This document shows, piece by piece, positions 794 to 34,535 of a DNA stretch of 64,000 nt. A model generated the notes under the pieces. That model was not told where the DNA came from, made no database searches, and saw nothing but the letters and a program-made list of their open reading frames with translations. Position numbers and translations under genes: made by a program. This DNA comes from Actinomycetota bacterium (GTDB lineage Bacteria; Actinomycetota; Geothermincolia; Geothermincolales; RBG-13-55-18), in the NCBI GenBank assembly GCA_014360645.1, contig JACIXD010000001.1, forward strand, positions 237,647-301,646. The letters run 5' to 3'. How positions within the stretch are numbered: the first letter of the stretch is position 1; each line of letters begins with the position of its first letter.

Positions 794-1876
794 CTATGCC
801 AGGAACTGGCGGTATATCTCGACATGCGCGGCCGCCGCCTTCTCCCAACCGAATTCCCTCGCTCTCCCGAGGCCGTCGCGGCGGACCTTTTCCCGCAACT
901 CGTGGTCCTCGAGCAAGGCGATCGCCTTATGGTAAATATCATCCACGTCGCGGGGGTCGCAATGCAACACCGAGCCGCCCGTCAACTCCAGGGACTGTGG
1001 TATGTCGGAGGCGACCACAGGACAGCCGCAGGCCATGGCCTCGATAACGTGGATGCCGCTCCCGCCCTCGTAAAGACTGGGCGCGAAGAGCAGCTCCGCA
1101 TTGGCGTAGAGTCGCGGCAGCTCGCTTTCCGGGACGTGGCCGCAAAAAACCACGCGGTCACGAAGATGCAGCCTCTCTATGGCGCGCAAGGAGCGCGCGC
1201 GGTCGGACCGTGATCCGGCAACTCCCACCTTGAGCAGGAAGATGTCGTGGTTACGGGAGATGCGCTTGAACGCCTCCAGGACGGAAGGGAAGTTCTTCCT
1301 CGGGATCTCCGAGCCCACGAAGAGCGCGTAACGGCTGTCTCCCCTCAGCCCGTAGCTCTCCAGGAAGGTCCGGTCCCGATATCCAGGCCTGTACAGCGCG
1401 TGATCCACGCCGCAATATACGACGCTCATCCTGTCCTCGGGATAACCGAGCTTTGATGCTATCTCGTTCAGCATATGCCTCGAGACAGTTATCACGTGGT
1501 CGGCGCGCAGGATACCGGGGACGTTGAAGGCCCGGAACGGATAGCTCTTGAGATCGGTGCGGCCCGCTTCCAGCGGGTGCAGATCGTGGAGGGTGAGCAG
1601 AACGGGCGCTTTTCTTCGCAGCAGGGGTACGAGGTGCGCGTTCGCATGGTCGTGGATGTGGAACAGACTACCGCTCAGTCCCGCTGCGTGTATGCTGTAC
1701 ATGAGATAGCGGTTGATGATCCCCTTCGGGAAAGGTATGGCGAGCCCCGCTATCTCGTCTATCGAGACATGTATGTCTGGAGCCAGGCCCGCCATCTCGC
1801 GGTGCAGGCACTCCACCCATTTGCTCATGCTTGGACCCCGCAGCCTGCGCACACCGTGGATCCATACCACATTCAT
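794..1876 (-). CDS. glycosyltransferase family 1
   Basis: 360 aa with GT1/GT4 C-terminal signature (EGGSGIHVIEAMACGCPVVASD). It overlaps the downstream gene by 4 bp. Confidence 0.8.
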   Translation of the reverse strand: MNVVWIHGVRRLRGPSMSKWVECLHREMAGLAPDIHVSIDEIAGLAIPFPKGIINRYLMYSIHAAGLSGSLFHIHDHANAHLVPLLRRKAPVLLTLHDLHPLEAGRTDLKSYPFRAFNVPGILRADHVITVSRHMLNEIASKLGYPEDRMSVVYCGVDHALYRPGYRDRTFLESYGLRGDSRYALFVGSEIPRKNFPSVLEAFKRISRNHDIFLLKVGVAGSRSDRARSLRAIERLHLRDRVVFCGHVPESELPRLYANAELLFAPSLYEGGSGIHVIEAMACGCPVVASDIPQSLELTGGSVLHCDPRDVDDIYHKAIALLEDHELREKVRRDGLGRAREFGWEKAAAAHVEIYRQFLA

Positions 1877-3696: not shown

Positions 3697-3701
3697 CCCC
3701 G

Positions 3702-5243
3702 CTATTCCAGTTTTATCTTGAGGGAGGTCAGCAGGATGTCCTCCTCGCCGATCTTCTCCAGGACGATCTTGACCTTCTCCCCTGGCAGGGGAACGCCTTT
3801 CATGTGGATGGTCCGTTTGCTGGTGAACGTTTCGCCGTCACGTGCAGGTGATTCATAATCCCTTGCGAGTACAGTGGAGAAAGGCTGGGCGGCGTTTTCG
3901 TTCCAGGGCTTAAGGCGCATGAAGCCGGGGTCGAAGGCCAGATCGGGATCAAAGGAGAATCCGCCTCCCAGAAACTCCACTTTGAGGCTTCCGGGGTTGG
4001 TGATATCCAGCCTCTTTCTTCCTTCCCCGAGGATAACCGCTCCCTTCTGCATGGGCGCGCCGGGCCCTCTGTTCTCGAAAAAGAGCAAGGGGGTGCCGTC
4101 GACCTGTATCGATCTGGGGACGATGGGATGCCACGTCTCAGCCGACAGCACGCCCGCCGGACCGTTCAGGAACAGAGTAGCCGAGGTGGTTGCCGGCACC
4201 GTGGGCTCGGGTCCGGTCTCCAGCGGGTCGAAGAGGAAGAGGGTGTTCCTGGCGAGGTATTTCACGGCATCGGTGCGTAAGGAGGTAAGGACGAAGTCGT
4301 CGCCCCAGGTAAGGGGCGAGATATCGAGCGTATACGAACCGCTCTCGCAGTCTTCCAGGTCTATCGATACGATCTGGTCCTCACCGGCCTCCATGGCATC
4401 ATCGGTGAGGTTTCCGTCGTCGGGGATCATGGCCTCATAATATGTCCTTCCCTTTCTCCTCAGGCGTATCAGCACGTCGTCGCCGCCCATATACCGGTTC
4501 AGATCTTTTTTGTGGACTTCCAAATGCAGCCTACCGGTGCTCACCACGAGCTCAATGGTATGTGCCCCCCGCAAAGGCATCCCGAGCGTTTCCACATTAC
4601 CGGTAGCATCAGGGCCGCATCCCCTTGCGAGAACCTCGTCGGGCCTGATCCCCGCCAGCGCGGCGTCTTCCTCCAGGTCCTCTGTCCGCGCCAGGAATTC
4701 GCCAATACTCGAAAAGCGCTTTGTTCGTTGATAGAGGCTCAGGCCGTCTTCGTGCATGACCTCCCAACCCCCCTTTTCTATCTCCGAGAGGAAGAGAGGA
4801 AGGGAATGATAGGGCTCGGCGAACCTGCTCCCTATGTGCATCCATAGCTGCTGCGGCGTTCCAAGGTATTCCGCCTCGATCTTGAGCGTTTCAGGCGTGA
4901 CGCCCTGAACGTCCAGGATAAGCTCCGTGTATCTCCTGGCCAGAGAAAGGCCGCTAACGACTTTACCGGTTTCGCCATCGAAGGAGACGACATCGACGTA
5001 CTCGGGCATAGACTTTGCTCCACCCGGGCTTTCATATTGATCGCCAAGACGGATCTCATAATTCACATTGAAATCCTTGCGGAACAGATAATCCCCAAGT
5101 ATGAAATATCCGGCGATCAATAAGATGATGGTAAGGGCGAGGACAAGCCTCCCCGTCTTGCTGAAAACGCGACGTTCCGTGAAAGCGTCCACAAGCCTCT
5201 TCAATCCCGGGTTTTTTATATTACCTGGTTGCCATATTATCAC
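3702..5243 (-). CDS. hypothetical membrane-anchored protein (N-terminal TM helix, large extracytoplasmic domain)
   Basis: 513 aa with a single N-terminal TM (LVLALTIILLIAGYFILG) and no motif I recognise. It is co-oriented with, and immediately upstream of, the GT-C gene. Confidence 0.55.
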   Translation of the reverse strand: MIIWQPGNIKNPGLKRLVDAFTERRVFSKTGRLVLALTIILLIAGYFILGDYLFRKDFNVNYEIRLGDQYESPGGAKSMPEYVDVVSFDGETGKVVSGLSLARRYTELILDVQGVTPETLKIEAEYLGTPQQLWMHIGSRFAEPYHSLPLFLSEIEKGGWEVMHEDGLSLYQRTKRFSSIGEFLARTEDLEEDAALAGIRPDEVLARGCGPDATGNVETLGMPLRGAHTIELVVSTGRLHLEVHKKDLNRYMGGDDVLIRLRRKGRTYYEAMIPDDGNLTDDAMEAGEDQIVSIDLEDCESGSYTLDISPLTWGDDFVLTSLRTDAVKYLARNTLFLFDPLETGPEPTVPATTSATLFLNGPAGVLSAETWHPIVPRSIQVDGTPLLFFENRGPGAPMQKGAVILGEGRKRLDITNPGSLKVEFLGGGFSFDPDLAFDPGFMRLKPWNENAAQPFSTVLARDYESPARDGETFTSKRTIHMKGVPLPGEKVKIVLEKIGEEDILLTSLKIKLE

Positions 5244-5462
5244 ATAGAAAGAAAGGCGGTGGGTGCGAGACGTCTCGGTGGTTGCTCTGCTCCGAGGAGT
5301 GCGTGCGCCAAAGCCCTCAGGACATAAAGCTCGGCGCGATGATGCCTGCGGCGCTGCAGTCGCGGCTCCGACGTCCTTTGGTGCCTGCGTCCCGGGCGAG
5401 GCCCTTATCTAGGGCCTGACCACAACCAATAATCTTTGAAAGCACCCCCGAGGGTTTAGAAT

Positions 5463-6575
5463 ATGAACATGGGATCGCTGGTGATGACCTCCTCATTTGA
5501 CGTGTTTCCTCCCCACACAGGGGGAGAGAGGCGCATCTATCAGATCGCCAGGGAGATGGCCGGTCGCGGGCGCGTCATTTTCGTCTACCCGAGGGAGAAA
5601 ACCGTTCCGGCTGAGGATATCCCGGGTATGGAGCTGGTTCCATACCGTATCAGGTGTCGATATCAGAAGCTGTTCAGTGTCGGGATGTTGCACAAGACGA
5701 TAAGGCTGTGCAGCAGGGAGAAGGCGGACCTGTTCTACGTGCATACTATCTGGGGGGGGCTGCAGGCGGTTTTGCTGCGGGCGTTGACCGGGGTCCCTTT
5801 TGTGCTGGACGAACAGAACGTGGAATACCTGAGGTTCCGCGACACGGGAAACCGCCTGTGGCCGATAATGAGAATATATGAAAAGGCGGTGACTGGATTT
5901 GCGGGGCTCGTGGTGTGCGTGTCCGAGAGGGACAAGGAGGCGTTTGTCGAACTGGGCGTCCCGAGGGAACGCCTGTATGTGGCGACAAACGGGGTTGACA
6001 CCTCCGTTTTCCGACCGGACGAGGATGCCCGAAGGAGGGTACGCGGTCAACTGGGCTTGGGAAACGACCCCCTGGTTCTCTTTTTTGGGGCCCTGGATTA
6101 TCCCCCCTCACTGGAAGCGCTTGCAGCGCTGAGGGATCATATCGTGCCCAGGGTAAGGGAAGCGGAACCAGGAGCGCGATTTATCGTGGCAGGGCGCAAC
6201 CCGCCGGCGAGAGCATTTTACGATGGAATGGAATTCGTGGGTTTCGTCGAAAGAATACAGGATTACATCAATGCAAGCGACGTGGTGGTGTGCCCCATAA
6301 CCAGCGGTGGCGGTACGAGGACAAAGATTCTGGAGGCAATCGCTTGCGGAAAAAGGGTGGTGAGTACCACCAAGGGAGCCGAGGGCCTTGAGCTCGATCT
6401 GGTAGGAGAAGGTGTTATCATGGCGGACGACTGGGACGATTTCTCCGATAAGGTGATAAATGCCGTCCGGATGACGGGAATCCCCGTCGATTTGCCGGAG
6501 CGCTTTTATGAGGAGTATTCCTGGAGGGGCATCGTCGAGGGGCTTTCGGCGGCCCTCGAAGGCGTCCGACCTTAG
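5463..6575 (+). CDS. glycosyltransferase family 1
   Basis: 370 aa with a GT4-type C-terminal domain (VCPITSGGGTRTKILEAIACGKRVVST). The start may instead be the ATG at 5484. Confidence 0.8.
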   Translation: MNMGSLVMTSSFDVFPPHTGGERRIYQIAREMAGRGRVIFVYPREKTVPAEDIPGMELVPYRIRCRYQKLFSVGMLHKTIRLCSREKADLFYVHTIWGGLQAVLLRALTGVPFVLDEQNVEYLRFRDTGNRLWPIMRIYEKAVTGFAGLVVCVSERDKEAFVELGVPRERLYVATNGVDTSVFRPDEDARRRVRGQLGLGNDPLVLFFGALDYPPSLEALAALRDHIVPRVREAEPGARFIVAGRNPPARAFYDGMEFVGFVERIQDYINASDVVVCPITSGGGTRTKILEAIACGKRVVSTTKGAEGLELDLVGEGVIMADDWDDFSDKVINAVRMTGIPVDLPERFYEEYSWRGIVEGLSAALEGVRP

Positions 6576-7468
6576 GCCCGACGGCAGGTCGATGCGGCCG
6601 CTTTCTCCCTCCACCAGTGCCAGACGAAACCCGTTAGTTGTGCGAGATACTGCAAAAGGAGAAGGGCCATGGACAGGAGGCCTCTTTTCGCGCCCTGTTG
6701 GCGGATGGCCCTCGATGAGGCCTTGAGCCTGTCTGATACCAGGTCGCGTGATATTCCGCGATAGGCGTGGTATTCATAATAGGATTTTCCTCTGCGGACG
6801 TGCCAGAGGATGAAATCCATGATCCTCTTTCTCGGTTCATGGAGGACGGTGGCATCCTCAACGTACAATATCTCATGGCCGCGTTTTATTAACCTGGATG
6901 CGAGCTCGACGTCCTCGCAGCCGTGGGAGAGCTTTTCGTCGAAGCAACCGAGTTCCAGGAGGAGGTTTCTGTCGATAGCGAAGTTCCCGGAGCAAAGGTG
7001 ATCGGTGATATCTCGCTCGTCTACATTCCACAGGCTCCGAAAACCGACTGACCCGCCGCCGGGATAGCCAAGGGACGATATGGCATCGGCCACCAGGCCC
7101 TGGCCTGTCGGCACCATGTTCCCTGACGTGGTGACCAAGACCTTTTTCTCGATTATGGGCTGGGTCAACTTCTCCAGCCATTGATCGTCAAGGGGGAGTT
7201 CATCATCGTCTATGAATGCGACGACCTGTCCTCTGGCAAGGCTCACGCCTTTATTGCGGTAATAAGGGATGCCCTTGGCTGGTGTTTCCCGAATCACCCT
7301 GATGATGTCGCTTTCGGGCAGCCTACTGGATATATCGGCCTGGGGGACAAGTATGATTTCAAAAGGATAATCCGATCGTTGTCGCAGAAGGGCCTCGACG
7401 AGGGGGTAGAGGCTTTCACGTCCCATGGTAGGGATGATCACGGAGATCGCGATATCACTCGGTCTCAA
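6572..7468 (-). CDS. glycosyltransferase family 2
   Basis: 298 aa with a GT2 N-terminus (ISVIIPTMGRESL...VAFIDDDELP, DxD). It is convergent with, and overlaps by 4 bp, the preceding GT1. Confidence 0.75.
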   Translation of the reverse strand: MRPSDIAISVIIPTMGRESLYPLVEALLRQRSDYPFEIILVPQADISSRLPESDIIRVIRETPAKGIPYYRNKGVSLARGQVVAFIDDDELPLDDQWLEKLTQPIIEKKVLVTTSGNMVPTGQGLVADAISSLGYPGGGSVGFRSLWNVDERDITDHLCSGNFAIDRNLLLELGCFDEKLSHGCEDVELASRLIKRGHEILYVEDATVLHEPRKRIMDFILWHVRRGKSYYEYHAYRGISRDLVSDRLKASSRAIRQQGAKRGLLSMALLLLQYLAQLTGFVWHWWREKAAASTCRRA

Positions 7469-8128
7469 GAGCTCGCTGCCTTCTGTTATACGTGATGTCG
7501 GCGCCGCAAAAAAGACGGCGCCACCCCTTCTGGGCGCCGCGTGATCCCTGCAAGCCTAAGTACTTGAAGTCATCAAAACTTTCGTTGCCTGAGCCTGTCC
7601 TTCCGCAGAATTCGGGGCGCATGACGTCCTTAGACTGCACGCCATATTCACAGCCGAAAACCCCATTCCCTCTGTGCCCTCCATGCATCCTCGGCGGTTG
7701 CCTCAGCATTCTCCATCCAGGACGAAACATCTTCGCGTAGAAACCATCCAGATTAGTGAGCATGGTAAGATGTTAGAGCTTATGCGATTCGGAGTAAAGC
7801 TGGTATCTGAGCAGCAAAAGTAATGCGCAGGCGAGGACCGCCATTAGCGAGGCTGCGTAGCCCTGGCGACATGTTAGAATGTATACACCGGAGATTGTGT
7901 TGGTTGGCGTATGATGCCGGCGGCTGTCGGCAGCAAGACGATGCGTGATGACCTGCTTGATGGAACGGCGGGCCGCGAAAAGGTGAAGGGGGTTGCAGCG
8001 GTCTTTATGATCAGGCAACAAACCTCAGGGTATAGCGTCTGGCTTCCAGATGGCATCATCCTGATCTGCCGGAAATCTGCATATTCCTCGCGAGGGATCG
8101 GAAGCGATAAAAACGGGAGTAGTCTAGC

Positions 8129-8992
8129 GTGTTGAGAGTGTCGCTGGTGCTGCCTGTCTTTAATGAAGAGAAGGCCATAGGCGAAGATCTTGAAGAAGCA
8201 GTCGCGACTCTAAGCTCCACCGACTGGGAATGGGAGATCATCGTGGTGGACGACGGCTCCACCGACGGCACGGCGGAGATAGCGGCCTCCTTCCCCGAGG
8301 TGCGCCTCATCCGCCATCCCTACAACATGGGGGGAGGGGCCGCGCGTTCCACGGGCATCAGGCACGCCAGGGGCGAGGTGGTGGTCATCTCCGACGGGGA
8401 CGGCACCTACCCCATGCGGGACATCCCACGGCTGGTGGAGGCCCTGGACGACTGCGAGATGGTGGTGGGGGCGAGGACGAAGGAGGCGGGGACCCTCAAG
8501 TTCCTGCGCGTCCCGGCCAAGTTCCTCATCCGCAAGCTGGCCGAGTTCATAAGCGGCGCCAGGATACCGGACCTCAACTCGGGTATGAGGGCCATGCGCA
8601 GGGAGACGGCGCTTCCCTACCTGCACATGCTCCCCAACGGGCATTCCTGGGTGAGCACCATCACCCTGGCCTTCCTCACCAACAGCCATCCTGTGAAGTA
8701 CGTGCCCATCGACTACTACCCGCGCAAGGGTAAGTCCACCTTTCACCCCGTAAGAGATACCGGCAATTACCTCATGACCATCTTCCGCACCATCACCTGG
8801 TTCAGCCCCTTGAAGATCTTCCTGCCCCTGGCCATGCTCCTCCTGCTCACCGGGACTGGCAAGCTCATCGCGGACGTGGTGCGCTACAGCTGGCGGGTCA
8901 CCCCCAGCACGGTGATCCTGGTGCTGGGCGGCCTGCAGATCCTGGTCCTGGGGCTCATCGCGGACATGATCGCCAAGAGGAGTTCTCCGTGA
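8129..8992 (+). CDS. polyprenol-phosphate sugar transferase, GT2 (DPM1/GtrB/CsbB-like)
   Basis: 287 aa with a GTG start. Has a GT2 catalytic domain (VSLVLPVFNEE...IIVVDDGSTDGT...VVISDGDGTY) plus C-terminal TM helices typical of GtrB/ArnC-type enzymes. Confidence 0.75.
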   Translation: MLRVSLVLPVFNEEKAIGEDLEEAVATLSSTDWEWEIIVVDDGSTDGTAEIAASFPEVRLIRHPYNMGGGAARSTGIRHARGEVVVISDGDGTYPMRDIPRLVEALDDCEMVVGARTKEAGTLKFLRVPAKFLIRKLAEFISGARIPDLNSGMRAMRRETALPYLHMLPNGHSWVSTITLAFLTNSHPVKYVPIDYYPRKGKSTFHPVRDTGNYLMTIFRTITWFSPLKIFLPLAMLLLLTGTGKLIADVVRYSWRVTPSTVILVLGGLQILVLGLIADMIAKRSSP

Positions 8993-9957
8993 CGCCCAGA
9001 GTGCTCATCACCGGGGCGGACGGGTTCGTGGGCAGGCACCTGGCGGCCTATCTGGTGCAGGAGGCCGGCGCCGGGGTGCTGGGCCTGGACATGCGTCCGC
9101 CGCGGGAGGGCGGGCCGTGGAAGGCCTGTGCCTTCGAGGTGTGCGACATCCTGGACGGAAGGGCCCTGTTCGAGCTGGTCAAGGGCTTCCGCCCCCATTA
9201 CGTCTTTCACCTCGCGGCCCAGAGCTCGGTGCGCCGTTCCTGGGAGGACCCCGAGCTCACCTTCCGCATCGCCCTGCACGGGCAGGCGAACCTCATCGAG
9301 GCCCTGCGCGTGGCGGGGGTGGAGGCGAGGGTGCATGTCGCATGTTCGTCGGAGGAATATGGAAAGGTGAGCGAGGACGAGCTCCCCATAAGGGAGACCC
9401 ACCCCCTCCGGCCCTCCAGCCCCTATGCCCTGAGCAAGGTGATGCAGGAGTACCACGCCGTCTTCTGCCACCAGGCCTACGGCATGGAGACGGTCATCAC
9501 CCGCGCCTTCAACATGATCGGGCCCGGGCAGTCGGCGGAGTTCGTGGCCTCCGACTTCGCGCGCCAGATAGCGGAGGCGGAGGCGGGCATGCGGGAGCCG
9601 GTGATCCGGGTGGGCAACCTGGAGGCGAGGCGGGATTTCTCCGACGTGCGCGACCTGGTGGGGGCGTACTGGGAGCTGCTCCGGAAGGGGGTCCCAGGAG
9701 AGGCGTACAATGTCTGCTCGGGGGAGGACCACCCCGTATCGGAGCTGCTGGACACCTTGCTATCCCTGAGCGGGACGCCTATAGAGGTGGTGGTGGACCC
9801 GCAGAAATACCGCGTGGCGGACATCCCGGTGCTCAGGGGGGATAACGCCAGGATGCGGGAGGTCACGGGGTGGAGGCCCCGGCTCAGCCTGGAGCAGACC
9901 CTCTCGGACGTGCTGGACTGGTGGAGGGCGGAGGTCGGCGGGAGGCAAAGGAGGTAG
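8989..9957 (+). CDS. NAD-dependent epimerase/dehydratase, GDP-4-keto-6-deoxy-D-mannose reductase-like (Rmd-like)
   Basis: 322 aa extended SDR (ITGADGFVG, SSEEYG, YxxxK in PYALSK, AFNMIGPGQ), paralogous to the gmd gene at 11441 and flanking manC. The start overlaps the upstream stop. Confidence 0.55.
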   Translation: MTPRVLITGADGFVGRHLAAYLVQEAGAGVLGLDMRPPREGGPWKACAFEVCDILDGRALFELVKGFRPHYVFHLAAQSSVRRSWEDPELTFRIALHGQANLIEALRVAGVEARVHVACSSEEYGKVSEDELPIRETHPLRPSSPYALSKVMQEYHAVFCHQAYGMETVITRAFNMIGPGQSAEFVASDFARQIAEAEAGMREPVIRVGNLEARRDFSDVRDLVGAYWELLRKGVPGEAYNVCSGEDHPVSELLDTLLSLSGTPIEVVVDPQKYRVADIPVLRGDNARMREVTGWRPRLSLEQTLSDVLDWWRAEVGGRQRR

Positions 9958-11440: not shown

Positions 11441-12394
11441 TTGAGGATACTCATCACGGGGATAACCGGGTTCGTAGGGAGCCACCTTGCGGAATACGCC
11501 CTCACCAAAGAAGGGGTGGAGGTCTTCGGCACCGTGCGCTGGCGGTCGCGCATGGACAACGTGGAGGGCATCCTGGACCGCATCCACATCATCGACTGCG
11601 ACCTGCGGGACAACGTGGCGGTGAAGAGGACGCTGGAGGAGGTCCGCCCCGATTACATCTTCCACTTGGCGGCCCAGAGCTTCGTGCCCACCTCCTGGAA
11701 GGCTCCCGCCGAGACCCTCACCACCAACATCATCTCCCAGCTCAACCTGCTGGAGTCCATCCGCGACCTGGGGCTGGAGACGCGCATCCAGGTGGCGGGA
11801 TCGAGCGAGGAGTACGGCCTGGTCTTCGAGCACGAGACGCCCATAAGCGAGGAGAACCCCCTGCGCCCCCTGTCCCCCTACGCGGTGAGCAAGGTGGCCC
11901 AGGACATGCTGGCCTACCAGTACCACCGCAGCTACGGCATCTACGCCGTGCGCACCCGAGCCTTCAACCACGAGGGGCCGCGCCGCGGGCACGTCTTCGT
12001 CACCAGCAACTTCGCCAAGCAGATCGCGGAGATCGAGAAGGGCAAGAAGGAGCCGGTCATCGAGGTGGGAAACCTCAACGCCCGCCGGGATTTCACCGAC
12101 GTGAGGGACATGGTCAAGGCCTACTGGCTATCCCTGGAGAAGGGCGAGGCGGGGGAGGTGTACAACATCGGGTCCGGGCGCGCGGTGACCATCCGCGAGA
12201 TGCTGGACATGCTGCTCTCCTACTCCCACCTGGATATCGAGATCAGGCCGGTTCCCGAGCGCATGCGCCCCTCCGATGTGGAGCTCTTGATCTGCGACTG
12301 CAGCAAGTTCAAGGCCATCACGGGGTGGAGCCCGGAGATACCCCTGGAAAAGACCCTGAAGGACACCCTGGATTACTGGCGTGAGCGCGTATGA
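11441..12394 (+). CDS. gmd: GDP-mannose 4,6-dehydratase
   Basis: 317 aa with a TTG start 4 nt after an AAGGAGGAG RBS. Carries the GMD hallmark [10 protein letters not shown], plus [15 protein letters not shown] and PYAVSK. Confidence 0.7.
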
Positions 12395-12446: not shown

Positions 12447-13703
12447 ATGGACTACGACGTGAAGGACCTTTCCCTGGCCCGCGAGGGAAAGCTGAGGATA
12501 GAGTGGGCGGAGCGGGACATGCCCGTGCTGCGCATGATCCGGGAGCGTTTCGAAAAGGACAGGCCCCTCAAAGGGGTGAGGGTGGGCGCCTGCCTCCACG
12601 TCACCACGGAGACCGCCAACCTTATGATCACCCTCAAGGCGGGGGGCGCGAAGGTGGCGCTGTGCGCCTCCAATCCCCTCTCCACCCAGGACGACGTGGC
12701 GGCCTCCCTGGTAAAACATCACAGGATCCCCGTCTTCGCGGTGAGGGGGGAGGACAAGAAGACCTATTATTCCCACATCAACGCCGTGCTGGACACCCAG
12801 CCGCAGGTGACCATGGACGACGGGGCGGACCTCATCTCCACCCTGCACTCGGAGCGCAGGGAGCAGGCGGAGAAGGTGTGGGCGGGGGCGGAGGAGACCA
12901 CCACCGGGGTCATCCGCCTCAAGGCCATGGCCGAGAGGGGGGTGCTCCTCTATCCGGTGATCGCGGTGAACAACGCCATGACCAAGCACCTCTTCGACAA
13001 CCGCTTCGGCACCGGGCAGTCCACCCTGGACGGGGTGCTGCGGGCCACCAACATCCTGCTGGCAGGCCGGCGGGTGGTGGTTTTCGGCTACGGCATGTGC
13101 GGACGCGGCGTGGCCTCGCGGGCACGCGGCCTGGGCGCCAACGTGACGGTGGTGGAGACGGACCCCCTGCGCGCCCTGGAGGCGGTGATGGAGGGCTTCG
13201 AGGTATCGGGCAGCGCGGCGGCGGCCGAGAAGGGAGACCTCTTCATCACCGTCACCGGCGACATCCACGTGCTGCGCGCCGAGCACTTCCGGCGCATGAA
13301 GGACGGCGCGGTGCTCTGCAACTCCGGGCATTTCAACGTGGAGATAGACATCCCCGCCCTGGAGAAGATGTCCCGCGGCAGGCGCCGTGTGCGCGAGAAC
13401 GTGGAGGAGTTCCTGCTCCGGGACGGGCGCCGCATCTACCTCCTCGCCGACGGGAGGCTGGTGAACCTGGCGGCGGCGGAGGGGCATCCCGCCTCGGTGA
13501 TGGACATGTCCTTCGCCAACCAAGCCCTGGTGGTGGAATACGTCAGGGAGAGCCACCCTTACCTGGAGAGGGTGGTCTACGACGTCCCCGAGGAGCTGGA
13601 CCGCGAGATCGCCCGCCTCAAGCTGGCCTCCATGGGCATAGAGATCGATTCCCTCACCCGCGAGCAGGAGAAATACCTCTCCTCCTGGGAGATGGGCACC
13701 TGA
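12447..13703 (+). CDS. ahcY: adenosylhomocysteinase
   Basis: Classic AhcY N-terminus [28 protein letters not shown] after a GGAGG RBS. The ORF-track start at 12381 is an in-frame upstream extension. Confidence 0.85.
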
Positions 13704-13925
13704 AGACCCGCGCGCAATAGCACTATGCGTGCGGGCAGTCGCTCGCCTTGTTATGTTCACGCCATGCCCGCCGAGGGATGGCGGCCCACGTCGCTCGACG
13801 GCCTTGATCTTGAGAGACGGGGTAGTTCACCGCGATCTTCCTGGATGAGGTCGCCCGTGTTTGCAGGGAAACCCCATCCGCATGGCCACGTCTGAGAGAT
13901 TGCGCAATATAACCGCGATCATGTT

Positions 13926-13958
13926 AATATAATCATTAAGTTGTTTGATGATTATATT
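13926..13958. promoter_or_regulatory. 11-bp perfect inverted repeat (AATATAATCAT-N11-ATGATTATATT), operator-like, upstream of the fic gene
   Basis: A perfect palindrome with no G/C (so not a terminator), lying 36-68 bp upstream of the fic ATG in the AT-rich leader. Confidence 0.35.
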
Positions 13959-13993
13959 TAATTGCATCCGGAAAGCGGGATTCCATTTTCAAG

Positions 13994-15079
13994 ATGACGG
14001 ACAAAATGGCTTCACGGAGGGGAGCGGGAGGAATGAGATCCTTTGAGGAAGGATTCATCTCAGGACAAGCTATAACCCAGGGACTCATCATGACCATCAG
14101 GACTATCGGAGAGTACAAGGGAAGGCATGCTCTGTACAAGTCGCAGGCTCCCCAGTTGCTGGAGACATTGCGGACGACTGCGATCGTCAACAGTGCCGAG
14201 GCATCAAACAGGATCGAGGGGATAACCGCACCCCTTAAGAGGATAGAGGAATTGGTGATAAGAAGGGATGAGCCCCGTAATCGATCGGAGCAGGAGATAG
14301 CGGGTTACAGGGATGCGCTGAGCACCATTCATGCAAACTGGCCAGACATGGATTTTAGCGCCGGCCTGGTTCTGCAGCTACATCGTGACCTGTTCAAGTA
14401 TGTTCCCGGGCAGGGGGGCAGATGGAAGCAGGTCGATGACGAGATAGCGGAGACTCTGCCTACCGGGGAGAAGATAGTGAGGTTCAAGCCTGTTCCAGCT
14501 CATCTAACGGGTGAGGCCATGGTGCGGTTGCATGAGCGATTCAATAGTGCATGGGAGGCAGGCGAGGTAGAGCCTTTGCTCATCATCCCGGCTTACATCC
14601 TGGATTTCCTGTGCATCCGTCCCTTTCTTGACGGTAACGGCAGGATGGCCAGGCTCATAACCCTGCTACTTCTATATAAGGCGGGCTATGAGGTTGGCAG
14701 GTATATCAGCCTCGAGAAGGTGATAGATGAAAACCGCGAGGGCTATTATGATGCTCTGCGAGGCTCGGATCGGGGATGGCACGAAGGAAACCACTCCCTC
14801 CTTCCCTGGTGGGAGTTTTTCCTGGGAGTCATGCTAATAGGAGCCTATAGGGAATTAGAACGGCGCGTAGGCGTGGTTTCCACTAAACGCGGCCATAAAC
14901 GAGAGATGATCCAGGATACCATTCGGCGATTGCCGGCGGAGTTCAGGGTATCCGATATCGAGAGAATATGTCCGGGAATAAGCAGGCCCACCATCAACAG
15001 GGTTCTTGCAATGCTCCGAGACAGAGGCGAGATCCGCTGCGTCAAGGCGGGTAGAGACGCGATATGGCGCAAGCTCTAG
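13994..15079 (+). CDS. Fic family protein (class II-like with N-terminal SxxxEG inhibitory motif and C-terminal wHTH); Fic motif has Arg in place of the catalytic His
   Basis: 361 aa. The Fic core is RPFLDGNGRMAR (canonical HPFx[DE]GNGRxxR; codon cgt at the His position). N-terminal SNRIEG matches the (S/T)xxxE(G/N) inhibitory helix, and the C-terminal ~60 aa look like a winged HTH. The gene sits in a lower-GC region. Confidence 0.7.
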   Translation: MTDKMASRRGAGGMRSFEEGFISGQAITQGLIMTIRTIGEYKGRHALYKSQAPQLLETLRTTAIVNSAEASNRIEGITAPLKRIEELVIRRDEPRNRSEQEIAGYRDALSTIHANWPDMDFSAGLVLQLHRDLFKYVPGQGGRWKQVDDEIAETLPTGEKIVRFKPVPAHLTGEAMVRLHERFNSAWEAGEVEPLLIIPAYILDFLCIRPFLDGNGRMARLITLLLLYKAGYEVGRYISLEKVIDENREGYYDALRGSDRGWHEGNHSLLPWWEFFLGVMLIGAYRELERRVGVVSTKRGHKREMIQDTIRRLPAEFRVSDIERICPGISRPTINRVLAMLRDRGEIRCVKAGRDAIWRKL

Positions 15080-15289
15080 AGATCACCCGCTGGCCTTGCG
15101 GTGGTGACGAAACCTTTGCCGGATTGGGGGTGGCCGCGGCCCGCATTCTCAAGATTAGGTATCGGCCATGAAAACATTGCCGGGAAGGGGAACGCTGAAG
15201 AAATTTCGATCCAGTCGCAGGCGGATGAGACGGCCGAGAAGGAGCAAACGATCGACAGCGCAACTCATAGATCGAGGCGGAGGTGAAAA

Positions 15290-16318
15290 GTGAACGTCGA
15301 GAAGGGCGGGGATTTCAAGGCGGTGGACTGGCGTGACGGCAGGGTGGTCCTGCTCGACCAGACGCGGCTTCCCGCGGAGGAGGTCTATATGGAGATCTCC
15401 GATTGGCGGGAGGTGGCCGAGGCCATAAGGAAGATGCGCGTGAGGGGAGCTCCCGCCATCGGGATAGCCGCCGCCTACGGCATCGCCCTGGCGGCCCTGG
15501 CGCCCGGCGCGAGGCGGGAGGTGGAGGCGGCGTGCCGGGAGCTGGCCACGGCGAGGCCCACGGCGGTGAACCTGGCGTGGGCGGTGGAGCGCATGCGCCG
15601 GGTGGCGGTGGACGCGCCCGCGGAGGGGCTTGCGGCCGCCCTCCTCTCCGAGGCGCACGAGATCGCGGCGGAGCAGGACGCCGCCGACCGGGCCATAGGC
15701 GAATTCGGGGCGGAGCTGCTCCCCGGGGGATGCCGCGTCCTCACCCACTGCAACGCGGGTGGGCTCGCCACCTATTCCTACGGCACCGCCCTGGGAGTGA
15801 TCAAGACCGCCTTCCGCCAGGGAAAGATCGCCCACGTGTGGGTGGACGAGACGCGGCCCCTCCTGCAGGGTGCTCGTCTCACCGCCTGGGAGCTCATGCG
15901 CGAGGGCATCCCCATGTCCCTCGTCTGTGACAACATGGCCGGGCACCTCATGTCCAGGGGGGAGGTGGACGCGGTGGTCACCGGGGCCGACCGGGTGGCG
16001 GCAAACGGAGACAGCGCGAACAAGATCGGCACCTACGCCCTGGCGGTGCTGGCGGAAAAGCACGGCCTGCCCTTCTATATCGCGGCGCCGCTCTCCACCC
16101 TGGACCCCGCCGCCGCCGACGGCGGGTCCATCCCTATCGAGGAGAGGGAGGAGGCGGAGGTCACCATCCTCGCCGGGACGGCCATCGCCCCCGCGGGGGT
16201 ACGAGCCCGTAACTTCGCCTTCGACGTCACCCCGGCCGAGCTCATCACCGCCATCATCACCGAGAGGGGCGTGGCCAGGCCTCCCTACGGCAGGTCCCTG
16301 CGCGAGCTCCTGGACTGA
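15290..16318 (+). CDS. mtnA: S-methyl-5-thioribose-1-phosphate isomerase (eIF-2B alpha/beta/delta family)
   Basis: 342 aa with a GTG start after GGAGGTG. MtnA-like throughout ([14 protein letters not shown]...[10 protein letters not shown]...ANKIGTY). Confidence 0.75.
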
Positions 16319-16511: not shown

Positions 16512-16517
16512 TATAAT
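16512..16517 (+). promoter_or_regulatory. TATAAT -10 hexamer upstream of the second nucleotidyltransferase gene
   Basis: cttataatgcg lies about 35 nt upstream of the ATG at 16552. Confidence 0.3.
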
Positions 16518-16551
16518 GCGACCGTTGCGGCGCGAGAAAGGCTTGAAGGCG

Positions 16552-17670
16552 ATGAAGGCGATGATCCTCGCGGCGGGGCTGGGAACCCGCCTGCGTCCCC
16601 TCACGGAGGAGATATCCAAGCCCATGGTGCCCATCGTCAACCGTCCCGTGATGGAGCACATCGTCGAGCTGCTGGCGCGCCACGGCTTCCACGAGCTGTA
16701 CGTGAACCTCCATTACCACCCCGAGGTGATCACCGGGCACTTCGGGGACGGCGCGAGATGGGGGCTCTCCATCACCTACTCCTACGAGGAGGAGCTGCTG
16801 GGGACCGCCGGGGGCGTCAAGAAGCTGGAGCGGGAACTGGGCGGCGAGAGGTTCCTGGTCATCAGCGGGGACGCCCTCACCGACCTCGACCTCACCGCGC
16901 TCATGGCCTTCCACGTCGGGCACGGGGCCCCGGCAACCATCGTGGTCACGCCGGTGGATGACCCCTCCAAGTACGGGGTGGTGATAATGGACGAGGGCGC
17001 CCGCATCGTGGCCTTCCAGGAGAAGCCCTCGCACGAGGAGGCGCGCAGCCATCTCGCCAACAGCGGCATATACGTGTTCGAGCCGGAGGTCCTGGAGATG
17101 ATTCCCCAGGGGTTCTATGATTTCGGCTCGCAGCTCTTCCCGCGTTTCCTGGCGGAAGGCACGCCTTTCTACGGCTACAGGCACCGGGATTACTGGAACG
17201 ACGTGGGGAGCCTGGAGGAGTACAAGGCGGGGAATTTCGACGCCCTCACCGGCAAGGTGAAGGTGAGGATACCGGGCGTTAGGATAGGGGACGACGTGTG
17301 GATAGGGGACGAGACGGTGATCGAGGAGGACGTGGTCATGGTCGGCCCCATCTGCATCGGCTCCCGTTGCCTGGTGAGGAAGGGCGCCAAGCTCTTCGGG
17401 CCCCTGGTGGTGGGGGACCGCACGGTCATCGACGAGGGCGCGGTTCTTTACCGCGGCATCAAGTGGGGGGACGGATACATAGGAAAGGACGCCCATCTCA
17501 TGGATTCCATCGTGGGGTGGGAGGCGGAGATAGGGAGGGGGGCCTCTCTGCTCTCCGATACGGTGGTGGGACACCGCGTGGTCATCGGGGAGGGGAGCGT
17601 CATCCACCCCAGCGTGAGCATCATGCCGGGCTCGGTCATCGAGAAGAACCACCACTTCAAAGGCGACTGA
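16552..17670 (+). CDS. sugar-1-phosphate nucleotidyltransferase with C-terminal hexapeptide (LbH) domain
   Basis: MKAMILAAGLGTRLRPLT nucleotidyltransferase motif followed by a left-handed beta-helix. The ORF-track start at 16516 lies inside a TATAAT -10 box, so the internal ATG at 16552 is preferred. Confidence 0.65.
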   Translation: MKAMILAAGLGTRLRPLTEEISKPMVPIVNRPVMEHIVELLARHGFHELYVNLHYHPEVITGHFGDGARWGLSITYSYEEELLGTAGGVKKLERELGGERFLVISGDALTDLDLTALMAFHVGHGAPATIVVTPVDDPSKYGVVIMDEGARIVAFQEKPSHEEARSHLANSGIYVFEPEVLEMIPQGFYDFGSQLFPRFLAEGTPFYGYRHRDYWNDVGSLEEYKAGNFDALTGKVKVRIPGVRIGDDVWIGDETVIEEDVVMVGPICIGSRCLVRKGAKLFGPLVVGDRTVIDEGAVLYRGIKWGDGYIGKDAHLMDSIVGWEAEIGRGASLLSDTVVGHRVVIGEGSVIHPSVSIMPGSVIEKNHHFKGD

Positions 17671-17734: not shown

Positions 17735-18410
17735 AGGCCTGGACCTCGCTGCGCTCCGTCCAGGCACTGGACACCGTAGCGCCTGCGGCGCTATCGCTTT
17801 CGCGATGCAGTCTCTCGCGCGATAAAGGATGACGCCCAGCCGCACAGGCACTGGACACCGTAGCGCCTGCGGCGCTATCGCTTTCGCGATGCAGTCTCTC
17901 GCGCGATAAAGGATGACGCCCAGCCGCACAGGCACTGGACACCGTAGCGCCTCCGGCGCTATCGCATTCGCGATGCAGTCTCTCGCACGATAAAGGATAA
18001 CACCCCGCCTAGCCAGGCGCTGGACACCGTAGCGCCTCCGGCGCTATCGCATTCGCGATGCAGTCTCTCGCACGATAAAGGATAACACCCCGCCTAGCCA
18101 GGCGCTGGACACCGTAGCGCCTCCGGCGCTATCGCTTACGCGATGCAGTCTCTCGCGCGATAAAGGATGACGCCCCGCCGCACAGGCACTGGACACCGTA
18201 GCGCCTGCGGCGCTATCGCTTACGCGATGCAGTCTCTCGCGCGATAAAGGATTACACCCCGCCGCACAGGCACCAGGCACCGTAGCGCCTGCGGCGCTAT
18301 CGCTTCCGCGATGCAGTCTCTCGCGCGATAAAGGATTACACCCCGCCGCACAGGCACCAGGCACCGTAGCGCCTGCGGCGCTATCGCTTTCGCGATGCAT
18401 TCCATCGGTC
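17735..18410. repeat. tandem direct repeat array, ~8 copies of an 83-85-bp unit (A A A B B A' C C subtypes)
   Basis: Full unit copies start at 17761, 17845, 17929, 18014, 18099, 18184, 18267 and 18351 (period 83-85 bp), preceded by a partial degenerate copy from ~17735. The unit caggcactggacaccgtagcgcctgcggcgctatcgctttcgcgatgcagtctctcgcgcgataaaggatgacgcccagccgca contains the small palindromes tagcgcc-tgc-ggcgcta, atcgc-tttc-gcgat and tcgcgcga. Copies differ at only a few positions. Confidence 0.9.
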
Positions 18411-18554
18411 GGGAGACCATAAGAACCTTTCTAAAAACACAAAACACTCGATCGTAACGAACCGGTCGTTCCCGGGCCAGGGCAAGGATGGAATGATGAG
18501 GTTCTTCTCCTGCTCCCGCTCATGGCGCCGCTTTGCAGGAAACCCATCTCGCTA

Positions 18555-18584
18555 TTGACATAACTTATAAAACATGATAAAAAT
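18555..18584 (+). promoter_or_regulatory. sigma70-type promoter (TTGACA-17-TAAAAAT) upstream of comF
   Basis: A perfect -35 hexamer sits in an AT-rich segment. The -10 ends about 7 nt before the ATG at 18592, so the comF mRNA may be leaderless. Confidence 0.4.
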
Positions 18585-18591
18585 AATAAAC

Positions 18592-19308
18592 ATGATAATA
18601 TATATACTTAACGAGCTGCTCTTCCCGGTGAGATGCGCCGGATGCGGGAGGTGCCTGCGCAGGCCGATATGTCCCGAGTGCAACGCGGCCATGCCCATGG
18701 TAAGAGGGCACACCTGCTCGCGGTGCGGCAGGCCCACCATGTATGCGGTGAACGGCTGCCTGCAGTGCGGCACCGGCCTGAGATCGGTCGACCACACAGT
18801 GGCCATGGCGGTGTACGAGGAGCCGCTGCGTTCCGTCATCCACAAACTGAAATATGGCAACGGCTGGAGGCTTGCGGCTCCGCTGGGCGCCATGGCGGCG
18901 GCACGCCTCGCCCCGCACCTGGCCACGAGCCGGCCCGCCGTCACCTTCGTTCCCATGCACCGACGTAGGAGGATGGAGCGCGGTTACGACCATGCCGAGA
19001 AGCTGGCTGCAGGCGTGGCGCGCGCCCTGGGTCTGGAGGTGGTACGCCTGCTCGAGCGCTCCCGTCTTTCCCCCTCACAGGCCTCCCTGGGGTATGCGGA
19101 GAGGCGGAAGAATGTAAAGGGGGCGTTCAGGCTGAAGGCGGATGGCCAGCTGCCGGAGGAGGTGGTGGTGGTGGACGACGTGCTCACCACGGGCTCCACT
19201 CTGGCGGAGTGCGCGGACACGCTCAAGGCGGGAGGGGCACGAAGGGTGGTGGCGTGTGTGCTCGCCCGGGACCTCCTCGAGGTGGGATCGGTCCCGGAGG
19301 CGGTGTGA
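18592..19308 (+). CDS. comF: ComF family protein (ComFC-like phosphoribosyltransferase-domain protein)
   Basis: N-terminal Zn-finger CAGCGRC...CPEC and a C-terminal PRTase motif VVVVDDVLTTGSTL. The start is uncertain (ATG 18592, possibly leaderless, or GTG 18628); the ORF-track start at 18574 lies within the promoter. Confidence 0.7.
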   Translation: MIIYILNELLFPVRCAGCGRCLRRPICPECNAAMPMVRGHTCSRCGRPTMYAVNGCLQCGTGLRSVDHTVAMAVYEEPLRSVIHKLKYGNGWRLAAPLGAMAAARLAPHLATSRPAVTFVPMHRRRRMERGYDHAEKLAAGVARALGLEVVRLLERSRLSPSQASLGYAERRKNVKGAFRLKADGQLPEEVVVVDDVLTTGSTLAECADTLKAGGARRVVACVLARDLLEVGSVPEAV

Positions 19309-20125: not shown

Positions 20126-20554
20126 GGAACCGGAAGGCTTCGGCCCGGGTCTGTGGTTGAAAGTCGATGCCAGCCGCAGGCGAAACGACCCACGTAAGCC
20201 AACTCTTGGTTGGTGAGCATGGTGCGGCTTAGGGGTAAGTCCTGCCCGGCACAAAGCCGGAGAAGCGTAGTAGTGGAGGGCCAGGGTTCTTTCCGGAGAA
20301 GAGCCCGCCCTCTGCGAGCCGTTCAGCAGGCGAGTGTGGGGGCAAAGACCAGGTCAGCCGGGTTCCGAGGCCTTCCTCGTGCCCGCATGCATGTTGGCAT
20401 CGGACCGATGGTATGCTAGGCTATTGCGAGTCGATGCACGGAAGCCGGGTCGCGGTCCGGGTGTGGACCGGCCCCATGAACAGGTCTCGATGATGGCCCA
20501 TACCGACACCAGCCTGGTATGGGTTTTTTCGCTGAGAGGAAGGGAGCGAGGAAC

Positions 20555-34189: not shown

Positions 34190-34535
34190 TGGTGGAGGCG
34201 GGGGGAGTCGAACCCCCGTCCAGAAATCCGGCCGGGTGGGCTCTACGAGCGTATCCGCCGCGAGGTTTTTCGCCACCGGGTCGCCCGGCGGAGGGCTAGC
34301 CGGCGGCTATCCCGTCAGGGTTTTCCCTCGGCCCTTACGGGAGTGGGGCCTCGGTGAGCCCGCTGCATGACGCCCCTTCCCCGGTCGCGGGCCTCCCGGG
34401 GAGGGACGGGCCGCTTAAGCGGCCAGGGCCAACTCGCTGTCGGCGTCTGTTGGTTTTCCCGCTTGTTGACGAGGCTCGGGTCCCCGGCTCGCTCCCGCGC
34501 CGGCCGCCGATCCCTGTCGAAGCCGTTTCGCCCCC
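34190..34535 (-). ncRNA. ssrA: tmRNA (transfer-messenger RNA, SsrA)
   Basis: The minus strand reads 5'-GGGGGCGAAACGGCUUCGACAGGG...GGACGGGGGUUCGACUCCCCCCGCCUCCACCA-3'. The acceptor stem carries a G3:U wobble (Ala identity), the T-arm is canonical and CCA is encoded. The internal tag ORF is ...GGA AAA CCA ACA GAC GCC GAC AGC GAG UUG GCC CUG GCC GCU UAA, giving (A)GKPTDADSELALAA. smpB is adjacent. Confidence 0.85.

Follow-up and report, generated by a model that had tools for sequence, protein, structure and literature searches.

What is a Fic-family gene with arginine in place of the catalytic histidine doing between two methionine-cycle genes, ahcY and mtnA, and how did it get there? The parts of the locus in the window (the whole 64-kb stretch of DNA analyzed here) that frame this question are the following:

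12447 to 13703, plus strand: ahcY (adenosylhomocysteinase), the left flank, with the start position set from homologues.
13704 to 15289, no strand: low-GC inserted segment with approximate borders, consisting of fic and its own upstream and downstream non-coding DNA.
15080 to 15289, no strand: non-coding spacer between fic and mtnA; the small ORFs inside it are not genes.
15290 to 16318, plus strand: mtnA (S-methyl-5-thioribose-1-phosphate isomerase), the right flank.

Both flanking genes are identified at the NCBIfam equivalog level (ahcY scores 633.6 bits with TIGR00936, where the cut-off is 497.6, and mtnA 428.5 bits with TIGR00512, where it is 279). The 1586-nt segment between them has a GC content of 0.545 against a window mean of 0.652 (s.d. 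0.037) and, in a compositional scan, is the lowest-GC stretch of 1.6 kb in the window; at third codon positions, GC is 0.63 in fic versus 0.90-0.93 in the four adjoining genes. In four relatives (L009, L010, L015 and L059), ahcY abuts mtnA and the segment is absent, and the gmd-ahcY-mtnA-ntp synteny is conserved in relatives without the insert. The composition together with this synteny shows that the segment is foreign and supports its horizontal acquisition. The initial annotation, which had set the same gene boundaries and suspected foreign origin from the low GC alone, was thus correct on these points. The only relative that carries the insert, the sister locus L005, has the same depressed, rather than uniform, GC content there (0.562 against 0.664).

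No signature of the route of acquisition, such as an integrase, flanking direct repeats or a tRNA target, was detected at the insert. The repeats at its flanks are short (10-23 nt), imperfect and at chance level, with no insertion scar; the ahcY-mtnA gap contains no tRNA or tRNA fragment; and the insert does not resemble what lies in the gaps of L007 and L008. In line with a foreign origin, homologues of fic are found on plasmids beside IS elements, in a phage and, in one case (L089), inside a BREX operon. The neighbors of fic in the near flanks examined are metabolic genes (gmd-like, ahcY, mtnA and a nucleotidyltransferase), with no adjoining T6SS genes, and no defence-island context surrounds fic in the window.

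The gene itself and the elements of its product that are relevant here map as follows:

14033 to 15079, plus strand: fic, encoding a predicted class II Fic protein with a winged helix-turn-helix (wHTH), 348 aa plus the stop codon (AF2, Foldseek, Pfam).
14204 to 14221, plus strand: inhibitory-helix motif S58-N-R-I-E62-G63, which fits (S/T)xxxE(G/N), as read from the sequence.
14438 to 14440, plus strand: codon 136, gac (Asp), the other change specific to this lineage; the AF2 model places it two residues ahead of the flap.
14444 to 14485, plus strand: predicted beta-hairpin flap, residues 138-151 (AF2 strands at 138-141 and 147-151).
14618 to 14653, plus strand: Fic signature motif R196-PFLDGNGRMA-R207, RPFLDGNGRMAR, with codon 196, cgt, at 14618-14620.
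14939 to 15073, plus strand: predicted C-terminal wHTH, residues 303-347 (strand-helix-helix-strand-strand in the AF2 model).

The longest plus-strand ORF at this position spans 13994-15079 (361 aa), and its ATG at 13994 was rejected as the start. The ATG at 14033 is preferred because it is preceded by a Shine-Dalgarno sequence (GGGAGG, 14026-14031), because M[KR]SFE is the N-terminus in all homologues, and because, in L005, a 1-nt indel interrupts the stretch from 13994 to 14033. The product, identical to NCBI MBC7228976.1 and MDI6832111.1, contains the Pfam Fic domain (PF02661) at residues 121-227 of the 361-aa ORF, with a score of 45.3 bits where the cut-off is 24. Its AF2 model (pLDDT 90.2) has 8UQU as the best Foldseek match (TM 0.97), followed by SoFic, CbFic2 and CccR, and the matches to 8UQU, SoFic, FICD and others have a probability of 1.00. 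The product aligns with CccR (7XUX) through the C-terminal domain (CccR residues 187-350). The PADLOC SoFic profile, a broad one, also matches along the full length (E 4.9e-34; residues 13-344 to profile positions 24-348 of 361), and the score against the NCBIfam SoFic equivalog, NF046030, is 32 bits, compared to a cut-off of 550. The SNRIEG motif falls within helix 40-62 of the model and is conserved as SNR[IL]EG in 120/120 closest homologues. Judging from its sequence, the fic product is a class II Fic protein, with the inhibitory helix preceding the Fic core on one and the same polypeptide. In the model, the only strands inside the Fic domain are those of the flap, the target-docking element of Fic domains. 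The Pfam match, the sequence alignments, the AF2 model and the Foldseek search all bear out the architecture first proposed for this gene, namely, a class II Fic domain with SNRIEG, arginine for the catalytic histidine and a C-terminal wHTH.

Arg196 aligns with the catalytic histidines of 8UQU, 4RGL and 7XUX, which confirms the register of the signature motif; the cgt codon lies 12 nt away from the position initially given for it (about 14606-14608). The remainder of the motif, PFLDGNGRMAR, is intact, and the departure from the pattern of AMPylating Fic enzymes, HxFx(D/E)GNGRxxR, is at the first position, that of the catalytic histidine. Of the 120 closest homologues, 115 have the canonical motif with histidine; among the remaining five, the histidine stands beside a changed GNG in three, one has tyrosine, and one, the fic product itself, has arginine. 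In L005, where the ahcY-fic-mtnA context is the same and nucleotide identity is 94%, codon 196 is cat (His), from which cgt differs by a single A-to-G transition, as had been surmised from the codon alone.

A one-base sequencing or assembly error in a normal histidine codon would yield the same transition, and the source of the window is a metagenome-assembled genome. However, the identical Arg protein is encoded in GCA_030018255.1, SRR23186779, SRR11866716/7 and JGI 3300002733. Because cgt is shared by three haplotypes that come from independent assemblies, vary at 7 sites within fic and have other SNPs around the codon, the error explanation that the initial annotation had kept in play is refuted at the assembly level and has become extremely improbable. 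The Arg196 substitution is real and fixed in the species. When JGI metagenomes were scanned with a pattern that fits either allele, the L005 record was the only hit. Residue 136 is asparagine in L005 and in 119/119 outgroup sequences, and aspartate in all Arg haplotypes. The lineage of the window thus changed two family-invariant positions and its sister none; H196R and N136D arose on one branch and bring opposite charges near the active site. N136D was considered and rejected as a general partner of H196R: most of the other Arg lineages lack aspartate at this position.

Upstream of fic lie three nested elements:

13917 to 13966, plus strand: the most conserved upstream non-coding block, AT-rich, a putative promoter/operator.
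13926 to 13958, no strand: palindrome AATATAATCATTAA-gttgt-TTGATGATTATATT (inverted repeat I7, 14-nt arms, 93% complementary), a candidate operator for a wHTH dimer.
13930 to 13936 and 13948 to 13954: core half-sites TAATCAT and ATGATTA, spaced as TAATCAT-N11-ATGATTA.

Only 4 of the 50 positions of the block differ from L005, compared to indels in the rest of the spacer, and the closest outgroup, L095, also has GATCATGTTAATAT[A/G]ATCAT. The TAATCAT-N11-ATGATTA arrangement occurs once in the window, and in approximately 1.14-1.2 Mb of fetched loci, the palindrome is found only beside fic homologues: it is kept in L005 and is also present beside L090, L091 (a 48%-identical plasmid copy), L095 and L096. 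A recognizable copy is missing at 5 of the 10 homologue loci examined, and a consensus promoter scan detected no sigma-70-like site at the palindrome; we infer a promoter in the 13917-13966 block on a putative basis. The fic half-site, ATAATCAT, matches the footprinted operator of CccR, AGATAATCAT-N26-ATGATAATCT.

Is the gene still in use? Under a scenario of early decay, an acquired Fic toxin or defence gene would have been inactivated by the His-to-Arg change, perhaps because it was harmful in this host, and would now be a functionless remnant too young to have accumulated disabling mutations. Such a course of events is compatible with the toxicity of active SoFic-type proteins and the harmlessness of their histidine mutants, with the two hits at family-invariant positions, and with the lack of a partner gene or defence-island context in the window. 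Furthermore, the Arg haplotypes have diverged very little from one another (dS at most 0.025), and therefore, a recently inactivated gene could still appear intact. The polymorphism argues otherwise: among the 7 sites of fic that are polymorphic within the Arg lineage, the only ones from which selection can be gauged, 6 changes are synonymous and 1 is nonsynonymous, a ratio that neutral evolution would rarely produce (P = 0.001). All three haplotypes keep the ORF intact, the putative operator block is conserved, and amino-acid change is not in excess of that in the His-bearing sister, with no rate acceleration in the Arg lineage (11 versus 12 derived changes); dN/dS against L005 is 0.18. Other Arg lineages, too, remain full length down to about 70% identity. 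Given the 6:1 ratio, fic appears to be still constrained by purifying selection, and we regard decay as a rather unlikely explanation.

The loss of the histidine is not peculiar to this locus; the His-to-Arg change recurs across the family of homologues. Arginine occupies the catalytic position in 13 of about 144-150 diverse family representatives, which are scattered over the tree at no fewer than 12 separate positions (in a rough NJ tree). This amounts to about 10% of the 50%-identity clusters, whose representatives over-sample fast-evolving lineages, compared to an Arg share of only about 1% among close (>60% identity) neighbors; one Arg clade persists, full length, to about 70% identity. 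In the Arg lineages, the active-site elements are relatively less conserved (p = 0.01) and the C-terminal domain is relatively more conserved (p = 0.02). Older Arg lineages subsequently lose GNG, the flap asparagine or the inhibitory glutamate; in the P0227 clade, for example, the motif reads RPFSEGNER, with GNG changed to GNE. The tally across the family suggests that such genes commonly end up as Arg pseudoenzymes after transfer, and the best reading of the fic locus is that it is a young case of this recurrent conversion.

Arginine is also the favored replacement, accounting for 12 of the 16 inferred changes (P between 3e-6 and 3e-3), and this preference can be interpreted in different ways. 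It is possible, and we put it forward tentatively, that the His-to-Arg change is driven by selection and acts as a repeatable switch, by which Fic-wHTH toxin/regulators with two functions become regulators that only bind DNA and perhaps still sense ATP. Arginine would then be favored because it locks or stabilizes the active-site loop. The arginine would pair, for example, with the inhibitory Glu62, with Asp200 or, in the lineage of the window, with the new Asp136. If so, fic would be a freshly converted example beside a still-catalytic sister allele. The same preference, along with the intact PFLDGNGRMAR and inhibitory SNRIEG, the oppositely charged changes on one branch, and the known Fic proteins that combine non-canonical motifs with other activities, could instead point to an altered enzyme, in which Arg196, perhaps jointly with Asp136, supports different or residual chemistry or nucleotide sensing, so that the protein would not be a pseudoenzyme at all. 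Some enzymes use arginine as a general base, which makes residual or altered chemistry conceivable. Nevertheless, every tested Fic enzyme loses both AMP transfer and AMP removal when the histidine is mutated, the erosion of GNG, flap asparagine and inhibitory glutamate in the older Arg lineages resembles relaxation rather than the emergence of a new catalytic center, and N136D is absent from most of the other Arg lineages. An altered enzyme, accordingly, seems improbable to us.

The explanation we favor, and consider probable, is that fic encodes a catalytically dead Fic-wHTH protein that functions as a DNA-binding autorepressor or transcription factor and derives from a foreign module, with the His-to-Arg change postdating the split from the sister. 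An ancestor of this Actinomycetota lineage would have received, between ahcY and mtnA, a mobile module of a single gene, which brought along an AT-rich promoter and a palindromic operator and whose product joins a class II Fic domain to a winged helix at the C-terminus. After the divergence from the His-keeping sister, one A-to-G transition would have converted His196 to arginine, and a second transition would have put aspartate in place of the invariant asparagine at position 136, by the base of the flap, both changes now being fixed. The Arg196 protein would be dead and non-toxic because every tested Fic enzyme requires the histidine for AMP transfer and removal; by this analogy, loss of catalysis is most likely. 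The activity retained would be that of a dimeric autorepressor or transcription factor acting on TAATCAT-N11-ATGATTA through the winged helix; DNA binding and autoregulation are what we infer for the product. Of the roles initially entertained for a dead or altered Fic protein, that of a regulator is the one favored here, whereas a two-gene toxin-antitoxin system, whether of the class I FicTA or the Sofic-AS1 kind, is not supported because there is no antitoxin-like partner ORF. The candidate partner ORFs, 15101-15286 and 15168-15293 downstream and 13725-13895 upstream, were rejected because in L005 they contain indels or stop codons or have lost the start codon.

CccR, SoFic, CbFic2 and other Fic-wHTH proteins are understood as two-in-one, combining an AMPylating toxin or defence enzyme with a transcription factor. 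The fic alleles, which occupy one chromosomal site, share 94% of their nucleotides and differ at the catalytic histidine, would form a natural separation-of-function pair, making it straightforward to test the role of the non-catalytic half alone. There is also a practical corollary: SoFic calls based on profile matches would count dead copies as active defence systems.

Among the known systems, the closest solved relative, from the same subfamily, is 8UQU, a Fic family protein of Bordetella bronchiseptica (N-terminal domain), which aligns with the fic product at 44-45% identity (E 6e-103; TM 0.97, rmsd 1.0 A over the Fic domain) and, unlike it, has the canonical histidine, CIHPFPDGNGRM; no function or paper for 8UQU was found in the literature. 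A more distant parallel is provided by BepC and the PFxxGNE Beps of Bartonella, which, according to excerpts from PMC8401265, have degenerate Fic motifs and no detected enzymatic activity. As in fic, the Fic fold is kept while catalytic residues are replaced, and GNG is changed to GNE as in the P0227 Arg clade. In contrast, the Beps, which derive from class I FicTA modules and carry OB and BID domains, are effectors that a T4SS delivers and that target the host, and the same excerpts note none with arginine at the histidine position.

CbFic2 has the same architecture as the fic product, a Fic domain followed by a C-terminal winged helix. SoFic (Shewanella SO_4266, PDB 3EQX/3ZEC) and EcSofic share with it the N-terminal dimerization helix, the class II Fic domain and the wHTH, as well as the solitary gene, at only 16-18% identity. 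SoFic binds its own low-GC promoter and AMPylates EF-Tu; its H198A mutant loses both AMPylation and deAMPylation, so that His198 is needed for both, whereas fic has arginine. SoFic/EcSofic is a single-gene anti-phage system (Millman et al. 2022), and the H194A mutant of EcSofic is non-toxic. EcSofic is accompanied downstream by a 47-aa antitoxin, AS1, whereas no such conserved ORF is present at fic. A further comparison is with CccR of Yersinia pseudotuberculosis (PDB 7XUX), a T6SS effector that has the catalytic histidine, AMPylates FtsZ and acts through a palindrome as the repressor of its own promoter; the H192A mutant is non-toxic, and the toxic and regulatory activities of CccR are independent (PMC9755527). 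The identity with the fic product is approximately 20%, the operator spacer is 26 nt in CccR versus 11 nt at fic, and fic has arginine and no adjoining T6SS genes. Nevertheless, both are class II Fic proteins with an SxxxEG inhibitory helix and a C-terminal HTH, dimeric in CccR, and the CccR operator half-site, AGATAATCAT, contains that of the candidate operator at fic, ATAATCAT.

The interval between ahcY and mtnA comprises 1586 bases and contains one credible gene, fic, which is encoded on the + strand and the product of which is identical to two proteins of Actinomycetota MAGs annotated as 'Fic family protein' (NCBI MBC7228976.1 and MDI6832111.1). The locus includes the following features:

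12447-13703, ahcY, left flank of the insert
13926-13958, palindrome AATATAATCATTAA-gttgt-TTGATGATTATATT, 75-107 nt upstream of the fic start
14033-15079, + strand, fic, 348 aa
14204-14221, + strand, SNRIEG inhibitory motif
14618-14653, + strand, Fic signature motif RPFLDGNGRMAR
14618-14620, + strand, Arg codon 196 (cgt), aligned to the catalytic His
15290-16318, mtnA, right flank of the insert

The fic start was assigned to ATG 14033 because this codon is preceded by a GGGAGG ribosome-binding site, aligns with the N-terminal M[KR]SFE of all homologues, and is separated by a 1-nt indel in the sister locus L005 (GCA_900174595.1) from the position of ATG 13994, the mechanical ORF start, which was rejected.

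The fic product belongs to the Fic superfamily and to class II, as the initial annotation had proposed from the SNRIEG motif; the Pfam Fic match scores 45.3 bits (cut-off 24). In the AlphaFold2 model (pLDDT 90.2, pTM 0.79), an all-helical Fic domain with one beta hairpin, the flap (residues 138-151), is accompanied by a C-terminal winged helix (residues 303-347; strand-helix-helix-strand-strand), matching the wHTH domain that had been predicted. The top Foldseek match is the Bordetella bronchiseptica Fic protein 8UQU (TM 0.97 on target), below which rank the full-length Fic-wHTH proteins 4RGL, Shewanella SoFic (3ZEC, 3EQX), 7CB8, CbFic2 (8CIL), and CccR (7XUX), the Fic-HTH autorepressor of Yersinia pseudotuberculosis. 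In HMMER alignments, the catalytic His residues of 8UQU (E 6e-103), 4RGL, and 7XUX fall opposite the Arg, in agreement with the original reading, and the motif register at this position is secure; the cgt codon itself lies 12 nt downstream of ~14606-14608, where it had been placed.

The exact window protein is also encoded in GCA_030018255.1 and in the Logan assemblies SRR23186779, SRR11866716, and SRR11866717, and a variant with one different residue is present in the JGI metagenome 3300002733. The three DNA haplotypes of this Arg lineage are 99.6-100% identical to the window, with seven differing sites within fic, and cgt is present in 3/3, which excludes the sequencing error initially considered. 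L005, the protein of which falls in the same 90% cluster, shares the gmd-ahcY-fic-mtnA-ntp context; its fic is 93.9% identical to that of the window, and the codon is cat (His). The two alleles therefore differ by a single A-to-G transition, the one step from His that had been suggested, and, judged from these sequences, the change postdates the split from the sister lineage and predates the diversification of the Arg lineage.

The insert has a GC content of 0.545, compared to 0.652 for the window (sd 0.037, same-size windows), and no other stretch of its size in the 64 kb is lower; fic has a GC3 of 0.63, vs 0.90-0.93 in the four neighbouring genes. We compared synteny across 80 fetched loci encoding ahcY relatives, in the closest of which the gmd-ahcY-mtnA-ntp order is kept. 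In Ca. Solincola sediminis (L009) and three other relatives (L010, L015, L059), ahcY is directly followed by mtnA, whereas in L008 and in Actinomycetota MAG STE_163 (L007), the two genes are separated by gaps without fic, of 351 nt and 904 nt (8258-9161, with tRNA-Ala(GGC) at 8843-8918), respectively. Among these loci, only L005 shares the insert, which is low in GC there as well (0.562 vs 0.664). By composition and by its distribution among relatives, the ahcY-mtnA segment is foreign, consistent with the low GC and horizontal acquisition originally proposed. At the window locus, the insertion is not accompanied by an integrase, a target duplication, or a tRNA remnant. The corresponding gap in L011 is ~600 nt, and the junction is a variable spot among relatives, as gap sizes in L007, L008, and L011 illustrate. 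Between the window and L005 (5220-6266), fic has a dS of 0.18, against 0.05-0.11 for the flanking genes, a two- to fourfold excess; weaker codon-usage constraint on the foreign gene, or recombination, could account for it.

Plasmid records with relatives of the fic protein number 429, and IS30, IS21, or IS3 elements flank some of these relatives. A 42% identical homologue with the canonical motif is located, moron-like, between the large terminase and portal genes of Syntrophomonadaceae phage IMGVR 15540650 (PV036453.1; L094, 3001-4074). In Coleofasciculus sp. FACHB-1120 (JACJTV010000007.1; L089, 872-13044), a 63% identical, His-containing homologue (P0036) is embedded in a BREX operon between brxC, the stop of which overlaps its start, and the pglX methyltransferase gene, with TniB/TniQ genes before it and a GmrSD-type gene after it.

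Elsewhere, the window contains a second, longer low-GC tract (1700-7900; 0.52-0.57 vs 0.65) with polysaccharide-type genes, judged from the matching part of locus L001 (Asn-synthase-like, methyltransferase, glycosyltransferase, epimerase), and a short dip to ~0.50 (18300-18700) downstream of a nucleotidyltransferase gene. Two paralogous pairs of GDP-mannose-dehydratase-like and nucleotidyltransferase (hexapeptide) genes, with 48% and 38% identity, surround ahcY-mtnA (11441-12394 and 16516-17670; L001 4957-7051). RNA features include:

20140-20368, + strand, raiA RNA motif (Rfam RF03072, 177.6 bits vs gathering score 101.3)
34190-34535, - strand, tmRNA, tag peptide ADSELALAA
41890-46040, five-tRNA cluster (Gly, Pro, His, Arg, Leu)

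SoFic H198A loses both AMPylation of EF-Tu and deAMPylation, toxicity is gone in H194A of the single-gene anti-phage relative EcSofic and in CccR H192A (PMC9755527), and His mutants of Campylobacter Fic2 and Fic3 are harmless. Because these mutants are inactive or harmless, the window protein would be expected to lack catalysis, by analogy with replacements not involving Arg; altered chemistry of the Arg196 protein appears improbable. The seven polymorphic sites of fic in the Arg lineage consist of six synonymous and one nonsynonymous (P = 0.001 for at most one nonsynonymous under neutrality, for three transitions and four transversions on fic), and dN/dS between the window and L005 is 0.18, comparable with mtnA. 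When the 25 amino-acid differences between the two were polarised with 117 outgroup sequences, 11 changes mapped to the window branch and 12 to the sister branch, that is, there was no acceleration on the window branch. All this argues against recent functionless inactivation, which we consider unlikely, although the window branch changed two family-invariant columns (H196R and N136D) and the sister branch none, a point in favour of decay. In the AlphaFold2 model, Asn136 is two residues ahead of the first flap strand, near the catalytic centre, and the two replacements bring in opposite charges. On this comparative evidence, fic is not yet decaying, and probably not at all.

Among the 120 closest clusters, 118 have His (115 in a fully canonical motif), one Tyr, and one, the window protein, Arg. 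We also searched 1.84 billion representatives of 50%-identity clusters exhaustively with HMMER; such representatives over-sample fast-evolving lineages, and the Arg of the query itself slightly favours Arg-bearing sequences in the ranking. At the catalytic column, the best 150 sequences have His 125, Arg 13, Gln 2, Ser 2, Asp 1, Phe 1, and gap 6. In a crude neighbour-joining tree of 127 near-full-length sequences, Arg appears at 12 separate places, with nearest neighbours almost all His; under parsimony, 16 changes are needed from a root with His, 12 of them to Arg, compared to 20-39% expected for random single-nucleotide replacements (P 3e-6 to 3e-3). In many of the lineages with Arg, the flap Asn, one Gly of GNG, or the inhibitory Glu has been lost as well. 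One such lineage, the P0227 clade, consists of six clusters, which reach down to 69-70% identity and are without exception full length and RPF[SE]EGNER-bearing; P0185 is another, isolated Arg lineage. In exploratory comparisons with the nearest His relatives (n = 10 vs 95), active-site elements are relatively less conserved in Arg lineages (ratio 1.25 vs 1.43, p = 0.01) and the C-terminal domain relatively more (1.18 vs 0.98, p = 0.02).

The palindrome upstream of fic lies within the best-conserved block of a spacer otherwise full of indels between the window and L005. L005 has the same outer arms (10 nt), and so does the region preceding a fic copy of 48% identity on Clostridium taeniosporum plasmid pCt3; TGATCAT-N11-ATGATCA occupies the equivalent place in the closest outgroup, L095, and in L090, and GATCATGTTAATAT[A/G]ATCAT is common to L095 and the window. 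T[AG]ATCAT-N9-12-ATGAT[CT]A has a single match in the window and, in 1.14 Mb of fetched loci, is confined to the neighbourhoods of fic homologues; half of the homologue loci examined have no recognisable copy. Through its C-terminal HTH, CccR represses its own promoter independently of toxic activity, with a footprinted operator AGATAATCAT-N26-ATGATAATCT (PMC9755527), and SoFic, as a dimer, binds the 100-bp stretch that immediately precedes its start codon. Because the palindrome recurs beside homologues, and CccR and SoFic bind their own promoters, we infer that it is the operator of the fic product. In a Firmicutes MAG (JAMDAP010000213.1; L096, 2298-2322), TGATCAT-N11-ATGATCA is found at the 3' end of the fic homologue, not upstream, and precedes a 59-aa ORF without a Pfam match. 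The L005 spacer (~4890-4950) carries an extra 60 nt relative to window ~13769 that resembles a local duplication of cactccatgcc(c/g)gcccgggagtggcg.

The fic product most likely functions, in our moderately confident assessment, as a catalytically inert protein that binds DNA to regulate its own gene. Among the options in the initial annotation, a catalytically dead Fic with a regulatory role is favoured; a two-gene, toxin-antitoxin-like system is unsupported because no conserved partner ORF was found beside fic. A single fic gene is of modest interest alone; the value of this locus is raised by an Arg-specific conversion that recurs across the family and by the naturally occurring pair of His and Arg alleles at one site, through which the question of function can be tested directly. 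The window protein differs from AMPylating Fic enzymes in that the defining catalytic His is absent, and from SoFic in that it scores 32 bits against an equivalog threshold of 550; its architecture is the same as that of CccR, SoFic, and CbFic2.
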